Of a stretch of 64,000 nucleotides of DNA, positions 24,734 to 64,000 are shown piece by piece. The notes under the pieces are model-generated. The model was not told the origin of the DNA. It worked only from the letters and a program-made list of their open reading frames with translations, and did not search any database. The position numbers and the translations under genes are program-made. Where the stretch lies: contig CAVOQP010000010.1 in the NCBI GenBank assembly GCA_963698385.1, forward strand, positions 529,518-593,517, given 5' to 3'. Source of the DNA: an uncultured Acidimicrobiia bacterium. Its GTDB lineage: Bacteria; Actinomycetota; Acidimicrobiia; Spongiisociales; JAENVV01. Every line of letters begins with the position of its first letter. Within the stretch, counting starts at the first letter, position 1.

Positions 24734-24867
24734 CGGACGAGGCTACCCGGGGAACGGCGGGAGCAAGCAGGGGCCGGGAGGGGCTCCCGGGCCCCCACTG
24801 GTGGTTGCCCGTGCGTCGATGACGACGTCTCCACTCCATGTGCGGACCCGCCATTAGGGTCTCTTGA

Positions 24868-25131
24868 ATGCACCGGATCGACCTGACCTACTGCGTTCCC
24901 TGAGACTATTCCGATCGTGCCGTGAGCACGGTGAAGGACCTCTTGGGCAATTACCAGCACATCATCGAGGAGCTCCGACTCGTGACGGGTTCAAAGGGGG
25001 TATTCGACGTCGTCGTCGACGGGGAGATCCTGTACTCGAAACACACCGAGGGTCGCCACGCCGAACCGGGCGAAGTGCTCGCCCGCTTCGTCCAGGCCTA
25101 CGGCCAAGGTGTCGCCCGGTACGGGGAGTAG
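24868..25131 (+). CDS. selW: SelW/Rdx-family selenoprotein with in-frame TGA (Sec) at 24901-24903 in a CVPU motif
   Basis: Reads MHRIDLTYCVPU(TGA)DYSDRAVSTVKDLL...GVFDVVVDGEILYSKHTEGRHAEPGEVL. This matches the Rdx consensus IEYCxxC..RA.WxAQELL...FEV.VDGELV.SK...GRFP. The ORF table only called the post-TGA half, 24922..25131. Confidence 0.7.
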
Positions 25132-25236: not shown

Positions 25237-25893
25237 ATGAAGAAGACAATCGCAGCATTGCTTGCGGGTATCGCTTTCGTCGCCGGAGGGTTCTTCGCCG
25301 GCACGTTCGGGGCATCCGACACCGCCGCAGCCGAAGAAGGTGACACGGCGGTCACCGCCGACGCCCCCGCTTGGAGTGGCGAGCACAGGGCCGATCACCG
25401 ACGCGGTCCCATGATCCACATGCTCGAGAGCGCGGCCGAGTTCCTCGATCTTGAACCCGTGGAGGTGCTCGAAGCACTCGCCGACGGAGGAGTCCTTGCG
25501 GACCTCACCGACGACGATGCCGGGCTGGTGGCGGCGATCGTCGCTGCGGCCGAAGCCGACATCGACCAGGCGGTCACTGACGGCAGGATGGATGCCGACC
25601 GCGCCGATGCGCTCAAGGACCAACTCGCAGATCGGGTGGAGACATTCATCACGACGTCCCATGAGCGACCGGACGACCGGCCGTTCCACGACCGGCACGT
25701 CCGCGGTTTCGTCAAGGAAGCAGCCGACGTCATCGGCATCGACGCGGCAGACCTCGTCGAAGGCCTCGCTGACGGAAAGAGCATCGCGGACGTGGCACTG
25801 GAGAACGGATTGAGCGAGTCCGACCTCGTCGACGCTCTCACCGATGCCGCCCGCGAGCGGATCGAAGAAGCGGTGAACAAGACGAAGCCGTAA
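25237..25893 (+). CDS. Secreted acidic hypothetical protein
   Basis: AAAAGGAG RBS and signal peptide MKKTIAALLAGIAFVAGGFFAGTFGA. Asp/Ala-rich. Confidence 0.55.
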   Translation: MKKTIAALLAGIAFVAGGFFAGTFGASDTAAAEEGDTAVTADAPAWSGEHRADHRRGPMIHMLESAAEFLDLEPVEVLEALADGGVLADLTDDDAGLVAAIVAAAEADIDQAVTDGRMDADRADALKDQLADRVETFITTSHERPDDRPFHDRHVRGFVKEAADVIGIDAADLVEGLADGKSIADVALENGLSESDLVDALTDAARERIEEAVNKTKP

Positions 25894-43158: not shown

Positions 43159-43967
43159 CAGTGGCCTCCGAGGTCCGCGAAGTGGACCCAGTCCTTGAGA
43201 TCGTCGAAGAAGATCCCATCGTTCCACGGGTAGACGAAGTTGAAGCCCGGACCCCGGAAGAGGACACCGAACATCGTGAGCGTCGCCGCGCCCATCAGGA
43301 AGAACGTGAACATGAAGATCACGAACTTGCGATCGGATGGCTTGGTCGAAGGGTTCTTGTCGATGTAGGGCACGGCCATGAGCCCGAACAGACCGGTGAT
43401 GAGCGGGACCGACACACCTGCGACCGCAGGGTCGAAGTAGGAAAGGAGTTCCTGCAAGCCGAGGAAGTACCACGGGGCCTTCGACGGGTTGGGGGTGGCG
43501 TTGAAGTTCGCGGCCTCGAGCAGCGGAGCCTGGAGGATGGTCGAGAGAACGATGAGGATCCCGGTGACCGCGAGAAGAGCCGCGAACTCGATGATCATCA
43601 GGTGCGGCCAGGTGTTCACCTTGTCCTGGGGTTCGACCTTGGCCTGCTGAATCGCCTTGGCCTTGACGACGGTGAGGAGACGCTGGGTCCGCACACCCTC
43701 CGGGCCCGAGACCGCCGGGGCGACCGGGCGCACCGAGGTGGCTTTCGACGGGTCACCGGTCATCACCACTGCGGCAGGCACCGGTGCAGCCGCAGGAGCA
43801 GCCGCGACAGCCGGTGCCGGTTCCGCGGCGGGTACGGCCGCAACGGGCGCGGCAGTCGGGGGCGCTTCGCCCTTCAGTTGGGCCATCGCTTCCTCGACCG
43901 AGATGCCGAGTGCTTTCGCCTTGGCCTCCGCCGACCGGCGGAGTAGGTGTTCGGGGAGTTCAGCCAT
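43158..43967 (-). CDS. Cytochrome b C-terminal (subunit IV-like) protein with extra N-terminal cytoplasmic module
   Basis: PWYFLGLQELLSYF motif of cytochrome b6f subunit IV / cytochrome b C-terminus. N-terminus MAELPEHLLRRSAEAKAKALGISVEE resembles the N-termini of 47560 and 48343. Confidence 0.75.
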   Translation of the reverse strand: MAELPEHLLRRSAEAKAKALGISVEEAMAQLKGEAPPTAAPVAAVPAAEPAPAVAAAPAAAPVPAAVVMTGDPSKATSVRPVAPAVSGPEGVRTQRLLTVVKAKAIQQAKVEPQDKVNTWPHLMIIEFAALLAVTGILIVLSTILQAPLLEAANFNATPNPSKAPWYFLGLQELLSYFDPAVAGVSVPLITGLFGLMAVPYIDKNPSTKPSDRKFVIFMFTFFLMGAATLTMFGVLFRGPGFNFVYPWNDGIFFDDLKDWVHFADLGGH

Positions 43968-63602: not shown

Positions 63603-64000
63603 TCCCGCATCCTCGTCACCGCTGCGGCGTCCTGGGAGGGCGCACGGCTCATCAATCGCCTCGTCCACCGAGACGGGGTGACGGTGATCGCCGTCGACGA
63701 CGAGGACCGCCGGGCGCTTCCCGTCCCTCTCCACCGAGCCGCCCTCGACACACTCGAGTTCGCCCACTTCGTCGTCGAAGCCGACCCGACGGCCATCATT
63801 CACCTCGCGACCATCGACCGCAGCAACCGCTTGGGCAAGGAACGCTCCCGGGAGGCGGTGATCCTTGGAACCCAGGCCCTGTTCGGGGCTTCCGAGCGGC
63901 TTCGCAACCTCACTCATGTGGTGGTGCGATCGGAGGGCCATGTCTACGGAAGCGGCAACCGCACCGCCCTCATCGCCCGTGAGGGGGATCGTCTCGGTGG
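63600..64000 (+). CDS. Partial CDS (runs off window end); possible NAD-dependent epimerase/dehydratase-like protein
   Basis: MSRILVTAAASWEGARLINRLV..., open to the end of the window. Confidence 0.35.
   Translation, partial: MSRILVTAAASWEGARLINRLVHRDGVTVIAVDDEDRRALPVPLHRAALDTLEFAHFVVEADPTAIIHLATIDRSNRLGKERSREAVILGTQALFGASERLRNLTHVVVRSEGHVYGSGNRTALIAREGDRLG

Follow-up and report, generated by a model that had tools for sequence, protein, structure and literature searches.

Background

SelW/Rdx has been known as a bacterial selenoprotein family since 2004-2005. The SelW-like proteins are an established family of bacterial selenoproteins (PMC1088965, PMC1794560), for which Pfam and NCBIfam each keep a model, and the insertion of selenocysteine (Sec) via SelB in bacteria, described by Bock and colleagues, has been summarised (PMC1088965, PMC13188914). 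Actinobacteria are listed among three selenoprotein-rich bacterial phyla (PMC1794560). Within the class Acidimicrobiia, selA, selB, selC and selD have been reported in all 84 complete Actinomarina genomes (bioRxiv 10.64898/2026.04.03.716425, a 2026 preprint). The mis-calling of selenoprotein genes is a recognised problem (PMC13326102).

Gene and reading frame

The window (the whole 64-kb stretch of DNA that was analysed) was found to contain, at 24868-25131, what is very probably an intact SelW-like gene in which the UGA at 24901-24903 is decoded as Sec, judging from its sequence and that of its relatives. The following features describe its coding region.

24868..25131, + strand: predicted complete CDS of an 87-residue SelW-like/Rdx selenoprotein with Sec at residue 12 (reading frame, profiles and orthologs)
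24892..24903, + strand: predicted CxxU redox motif Cys9-Val-Pro-Sec12, TGC GTT CCC TGA (alignment with CVPC/CxxC homologs)
24901-24903, + strand: putative Sec codon TGA (TGA in 79/80 and TGT in 1/80 of the best 80 of 426 relatives)

The ATG at 24868 lies directly 3' of an in-frame TGA (24865-24867) and is thus the earliest possible start. Translation from this codon gives MHRIDLTYCVP, the TGA at 24901-24903 and then DYSDRAVSTVKDLL..., ending at the stop codon TAG (25129-25131). The peptide following the internal TGA (DYSDRAVSTVKDLLGNYQH...) runs open to this TAG, for a total of 87 codons. The initial annotation had proposed the upstream in-frame extension MHRIDLTYCVP-TGA from ATG 24868 and had remarked that the ORF table gives only the part after the TGA (24922..25131); the sequence reads exactly so, and the ORF table indeed holds only that part.

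Family membership

With U replaced by C, the 87-aa protein was matched by the Pfam Rdx profile PF10262 at 57.4 bits (cut-off 22.6) over profile positions 1-71 of 74, so that the check proposed in the initial annotation returned nearly the whole profile. The fragment following the TGA alone scored 34.5 bits (profile positions 21-71). Comparison of the two scores shows that the eleven residues preceding the TGA, with a few following it, add 23 bits and supply strand 1 and the redox motif. NCBIfam TIGR02174 (CXXU_selWTH, the SelT/SelW/SelH family) matched at 43.3 bits against a cut-off of 34.2. The Campylobacter-type equivalog NF041051 was rejected as the subfamily, its score of 64 bits falling below the cut-off of 88.

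The solved Rdx structures 3DEX (SAV_2001), 2FA8 (Atu0228), 2OJL, 2OKA and 2OBK align with residues 2-73 of the protein, and their CxxC falls on C9...U12 (CVP-U). More distant, full-length homologs of 96-102 aa read IEYCVPCDYS, with Cys at the Sec position. The proposal that CVP-TGA reproduces the CxxU motif of the Rdx/SelW family is thus upheld by alignment to the CVPC homologs and to the CxxC of 3DEX and 2FA8. From its similarity to the solved Rdx structures, the 87-aa protein would be expected to adopt a thioredoxin-like fold, its motif lying between strand 1 and helix 1. Sec recoding of this type is textbook biology, and the gene adds another member to the SelW-like/Rdx family.

Conservation of the TGA among relatives

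A search of a protein collection returned 418 relatives, the best 120 of which are referred to as P0001-P0120. A genome scan with one genome per species returned 426 relatives, the best 80 of which (L001-L080) form the basis of the counts given here. These best 80 of 426 all belong to metagenome-assembled genomes (MAGs) of Acidimicrobiia (Ilumatobacteraceae, Microthrixaceae, Acidimicrobiaceae and unclassified), and their tblastn matches extend across the TGA. At the Sec position, within the context YCV[PS]-TGA-[DN]Y, 79 of the best 80 of 426 carry TGA, and one (L017) carries TGT. The complete chromosomes OZ244166.1, OZ244163.1 and OZ241383.1 have the TGA form. This ortholog codon check, suggested beforehand, therefore came out in favour of TGA (79/80, with 1/80 TGT), with the upstream YCVP kept. 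In the Acidimicrobiia sampled, the predicted Sec form is nearly fixed.

Among the same 80 of 426 loci, the first and second positions of codons -10 to -1 are conserved and the third position is free. Per-position entropies are 0/0/1.73 for Val at -2 and 0.29/0.29/1.24 for Pro at -1. Upstream of codon -11 all three positions are random, and conservation ends there. This codon-position pattern points to a translated peptide, under purifying selection, whose beginning coincides with ATG 24868. The orthologs gave no sign of the arrangement that the initial annotation had named as refuting it, namely a genuine stop with an independent downstream start and no conservation of the upstream CVP.

A lone in-frame stop in a short gene, together with the TGT of relative L017, could also indicate a pseudogene or a sequencing or assembly error in which TGA replaces TGC or TGT. 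This explanation is extremely improbable, as TGA occurs in 79/80 independently assembled genomes with the frame intact on both sides.

The putative SECIS element

A hairpin was identified downstream of the putative Sec codon.

24914..24932, + strand: predicted bacterial SECIS core, 7-bp stem AUCGUGC/GCACGGU with loop CGUGA at 24921-24925 (fold, model and covariation)

The initial annotation had described a short hairpin, CGTGC-CGTGA-GCACG, at 24916-24930. It is present, and is longer than described by two pairs, U.G and A-U, which extend the stem to 24914-24932 (arms 24914-24920 and 24926-24932). Its apical loop lies 17 nt after the UGA, and its suggested placement where bacterial SECIS elements lie agrees with the 16-37 nt range of the published bacterial SECIS model (PMC13188914 Fig. 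2A). The values of this model and of the window are as follows.

Apical loop: model 3-9 nt; window 5 nt, CGUGA
Upper stem: model 4-16 bp; window 7 bp
Loop G: model, G in the first two loop positions; window, G at position 2
UGA-loop distance: model 16-37 nt; window 17 nt
Minimum free energy (MFE): model <= -7.5 kcal/mol; window -7.8 kcal/mol

The window hairpin agrees with the model on every criterion. A spacing of 17 nt combined with a 5-nt loop of CGUGA or CGUGC was found in 64/81 sequences. When the contiguous apical stem alone was scored, 52/81 sequences passed all criteria and the remaining 29/81 missed the -7.5 kcal/mol threshold. The 60-nt fold showed no extra stability relative to shuffled sequences (z = -0.24; 77/200 shuffles fold as well), and thermodynamic stability was rejected as evidence for the hairpin in this sequence of 67% G+C. 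No Rfam match was obtained for the whole window at gathering thresholds or for 24850-25000 at E <= 10; Rfam is without a model that detects this bacterial SECIS.

Evidence for the hairpin comes instead from its evolution. The ungapped alignment of 80 sequences (A2) shows pairing in 83.7% of the helix cells. The covariation score of the helix, uncorrected for phylogeny, is 0.164 against 0.101 in shuffles; it was reached by 0/500 of these and lies above all slid controls. Compensatory changes occur at three stem pairs, including U-A to C-G and G-C to A-U. At pair 18-28, 66 sequences have C-G, 11 have U-A and 2 have U-G (Fisher p = 3e-11, phylogeny uncorrected); at pair 19-27, 76 have G-C and 3 have A-U. 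The exchange at 18-28 is synonymous on one side (Arg CGY) and replaces an amino acid on the other (Ala GCG to Thr ACG), which implies that here the protein follows the RNA structure. All sequences with Ala-Val in the loop encode it as GCC GUG, with frozen synonymous sites; in long ORFs from these genomes GCCGTG accounts for just 18.5% of Ala-Val dicodons. By covariation and synonymous-site constraint, the hairpin is an RNA structure under selection of its own. It is homology and conservation, not thermodynamics, that place the TGA, its flanking peptide and the hairpin beyond chance.

No comparable hairpin was found in the Cys-form relative L083 (P0071; -2.3 kcal/mol), and a geometry scan found no second element of SelW-type SECIS geometry in the 64-kb window.

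Several variants of the element were observed. The sole TGT ortholog among the best 80 of 426, L017 (Ca. Microthrix MAG CAYFOV010000016.1, 10031-10078), retains an intact hairpin, CGCGC-CGUGA-GCGCG, of -10.2 kcal/mol; from its sequence this looks like the fossil SECIS of a recent Sec-to-Cys conversion. A subclade formed by L051, L064, L067 and L068 (around 10034, 10034, 4430 and 9592, respectively) has C-V-S-U in place of C-V-P-U and His for Arg at codon +5. A stem mismatch (A.C) weakens its hairpin, which under strict scoring does not reach the energy threshold. In L032 (10034-10081) a one-codon insertion (an extra Ala, RAAVS) gives an apical loop of 8 nt (CGCCGUGA), with the GUGA end and the stem kept.

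Sec machinery and probable further use of Sec in the lineage

Using E. coli SelA, SelB and SelD as tblastn probes, no selA, selB or selD was found in the 64-kb window or in about 1.2 Mb of flanking sequence of the 80 relatives. The sole hit over the window and the 80 loci, a SelB-like match in L060, was rejected as EF-Tu. No tRNA genes were detected in the window (ARAGORN), and no tRNA-Sec at any of the 80 loci. The source genome would be expected to carry selABCD, given the predicted selenoprotein; indirect support comes from the PrdB/GrdB-like gene described below, from the sel genes reported for Actinomarina and from the selenoprotein richness of Actinobacteria.

Of 9 long high-GC3 ORFs in the window, 7 end in TGA, among them the neighbouring MFS, PD-(D/E)XK and Rrf2 genes, and most SelW orthologs stop at TGA while also carrying the internal TGA. 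As TGA is an ordinary stop in the window and in the SelW orthologs, recoding is local and does not reflect a reassigned code.

A motif scan identified a second conserved in-frame TGA at two loci that also bear SelW, L006 (12679, + strand) and L070 (12019, + strand). It lies in the context ...VVLL[VI]PL-U-PVCHQAV... of a PrdB/GrdB-like protein matched by TIGR04483 (E = 8.5e-26, below the equivalog cut-off). PrdB/GrdB is a classical selenoprotein family. Downstream of the TGA in question comes the hairpin CCAGGC-CGUGA-GCCUGG, spaced 17 nt as in the SelW SECIS, and the gene is located approximately 2.6 kb from SelW in both L006 and L070; it was found neither in the window nor at the other 78 of the 80 loci. 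Loop and spacing are identical between the SelW and PrdB-like elements, the stem sequences differ and the proteins are unrelated. Judged from these sequences, a CGUGA loop at 17 nt in both genes is the pattern to be expected of a SelB recognition element common to them. The PrdB/GrdB-like gene of L006 and L070 is probably another mis-annotated selenoprotein, and its putative SECIS points to a lineage-specific SelB signature.

It could be argued that read-through of the UGA inserts an amino acid other than Sec, such as Trp or Cys, through near-cognate suppression or a reassigned code, with the hairpin doing no more than stimulating it; no Sec machinery was found in the window or in the searched flanks of its relatives. 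Against this, TGA is the main ordinary stop in the window, most SelW orthologs terminate with it, and the UGA stands at the catalytic Cys/Sec position in a family that is defined by CxxC/CxxU. Furthermore, the hairpin fits the SelB-type SECIS model, the PrdB/GrdB-like gene uses the same element in related genomes and Sec machinery has been reported in Acidimicrobiia (bioRxiv 10.64898/2026.04.03.716425). Read-through of this kind is accordingly given only a slight chance, and decoding as Sec is preferred.

Further in-frame TGAs with long open, high-GC3 sequence on both sides were noted in the window at 43648, 48334, 13526 and 1545 on the + strand and at 63802, 54691 and 18951 on the - strand. 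These seven were judged unconvincing, most of them resembling adjacent same-frame genes or off-frame high-G+C artefacts, and SelW-type SECIS geometry was found at none of them.

Expression and genomic neighbourhood

A possible promoter element was identified immediately upstream of the gene.

24855..24860, + strand: candidate -10 hexamer TAGGGT (TAnnnT type), 7 nt upstream of the ATG (recurrence in relatives)

A TAnnnT hexamer ending 6-9 nt (mostly 6-7) before the start codon occurs in 61/81 sequences, against a background of 0.4% per site. A Shine-Dalgarno sequence is absent before ATG 24868, and a scan for sigma-70 consensus promoters and terminators returned nothing. Leaderless mRNAs are common in Actinobacteria. 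The SelW mRNA is probably leaderless as well, starting at or beside ATG 24868; the Sec-UGA would then lie just 33 nt from its 5' end, and the SECIS 46 nt.

The neighbouring genes encode a GH77 4-alpha-glucanotransferase, a divergent MFS transporter, a secreted 218-aa protein, a PD-(D/E)XK protein and an Rrf2 regulator. Among the 80 loci these are common only to the closest relative, L015. SelW is therefore a stand-alone gene, and its context holds no clue to function or substrate. The ORF of 218 aa lies directly downstream (25237-25893, + strand). It has a strong Shine-Dalgarno sequence, and its N-terminus (MKKTIAALLAGIAFVAGGFFA) resembles a signal peptide. No Pfam family matches it, and conservation extends to L015 alone.

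Annotation of the gene and its relatives in databases

The gene is present in public records only in truncated form, and the protein collection contains no full-length version of it.

24931..25131, + strand: 66-aa product P0001 with GTG start (NCBI/ENA record, 751,211-bp contig)

P0001 is identical to the translation of the window except for its start residue. An alternative mis-call, of 69 aa from GTG 24922, is found on a Logan contig. Among the best 120 of 418 protein relatives, the closest are almost all of 66-74 aa, covering approximately 78% of the query, with recorded starts at or near the internal GTG; a full-length Sec form was not found among these 120. The few relatives of 96-102 aa among the 418 cover the query fully. 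Some of the truncated relatives are titled 'selenoprotein W-related' or 'predicted Rdx family selenoprotein'. The 66-aa record arises because gene callers treat the TGA as a stop, and this truncation is systematic across Acidimicrobiia.

If the databases were right, the TGA would be a true stop and the real gene an ORF of 66-69 aa beginning at an internal GTG (24922 or 24931), the upstream CVP being a remnant or a coincidence. The gene callers of NCBI/ENA, JGI and Logan annotate the gene and more than 100 relatives in this manner, and the GTG at 24922-24924 is invariant in 80/80 relatives, as a conserved start would be. That invariance, however, is explained by its position in the SECIS loop, and the CGUGA loop also occurs in the PrdB-like gene, where no start lies close by. 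Neither GTG (24922, 24931) is preceded by a Shine-Dalgarno sequence. The ten codons before the TGA evolve as coding sequence across 80 species and align with strand 1 and CxxC, and a product of 66-69 aa would lose strand 1 and the entire redox motif. Termination at this TGA is thus considered very unlikely, and the full-length Sec form is favoured. What has been deposited is a 66-aa fragment without the active site, with the same error repeated in essentially all of the more than 100 close relatives in the protein collection, across many Acidimicrobiia genomes.

Proposed mechanism and significance

Family membership, a UGA at the catalytic Cys/Sec position, conservation of the TGA and of its flanks and a covarying SECIS that fits the consensus are shown by the sequences; SelB binding, the presence of selABCD in this genome, the leaderless start, the redox chemistry and its substrate we infer. 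Translation would start at the ATG of a leaderless mRNA, and the ribosome would meet the UGA at codon 12. SelB carrying GTP and Sec-tRNA(Sec) would bind the apical loop CGUGA, 17 nt past the UGA, and this complex would deliver Sec at the UGA in competition with release factor 2 (RF2). The finished protein of 87 residues would possess Cys9-x-x-Sec12 at the start of its first helix. By analogy with the family, the Cys9/Sec12 pair may cycle between the selenol/thiol and selenenylsulfide states, and the predicted thiol-disulfide-type oxidoreductase may act on a partner by reducing a disulfide or a sulfenic acid.

Given how nearly universal the TGA is, Sec decoding would be widespread in the abundant, mostly uncultured Acidimicrobiia, a class for which it has been noted only recently and for one order. 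The conserved loop and spacing offer a simple handle for other selenoproteins of the lineage. We put forward tentatively, as a possibility rather than a probability, that Acidimicrobiia keep a near-fixed Sec-containing SelW that is leaderless and is recoded via an unusually minimal, lineage-specific SECIS (GC-CGUGA-GC, exactly 17 nt past the UGA) common to unrelated selenoprotein genes such as the PrdB-like one. Were this signature general, a motif search would recover the whole mis-annotated selenoproteome of the Acidimicrobiia, and the specificity of a divergent SelB would be defined.

Comparison with known systems

The closest described systems are the bacterial SelW-like selenoproteins reported by Zhang, Gladyshev and colleagues, including those of the Sargasso Sea and GOS selenoproteomes. 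Like the window gene, these are of approximately 85-100 aa, with CxxU right after strand 1, Cys homologs and profile scores above curated cut-offs, and their SECIS lies in the coding region just 3' of the UGA and has a small, G-containing loop. The window gene differs in its origin from Acidimicrobiia and in the near-fixation of its predicted Sec (79/80 of the best 80 of 426 relatives). Its motif is specifically C-V-P-U, its mRNA is probably leaderless and its putative SECIS is minimal, with a near-invariant CGUGR loop and a fixed spacing of 17 nt.

The Cys-form Rdx proteins SAV_2001 of Streptomyces avermitilis (3DEX) and Atu0228 of Agrobacterium (2FA8) share the same domain, alignable over residues 2-73. 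They possess Cys in place of Sec, with CTQC/CxxC and not CVPU, and are of approximately 105 aa with extra termini; with E-values of 1e-7 to 1e-6, they are distant relatives of the window protein. Mammalian SELENOW, along with SelT, SelH and SelV, belongs to the same Pfam family and shares the CxxU position and, as predicted for the window protein, the thioredoxin-like fold. The eukaryotic members depend on a kink-turn SECIS in the 3'-UTR, with SBP2 and eEFSec, whereas the window gene has an in-frame hairpin of bacterial type.

The paradigm for SelB binding is the SECIS of E. coli fdhF, which, like the putative element of the window, is an in-frame hairpin directly 3' of the UGA, and in both the apical loop carries a G-U whose distance from the UGA is defined (PMC13188914). 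In contrast to fdhF, the putative SECIS of the window is much shorter, with a 7-bp stem, the loop CGUGA and no evident bulged U.
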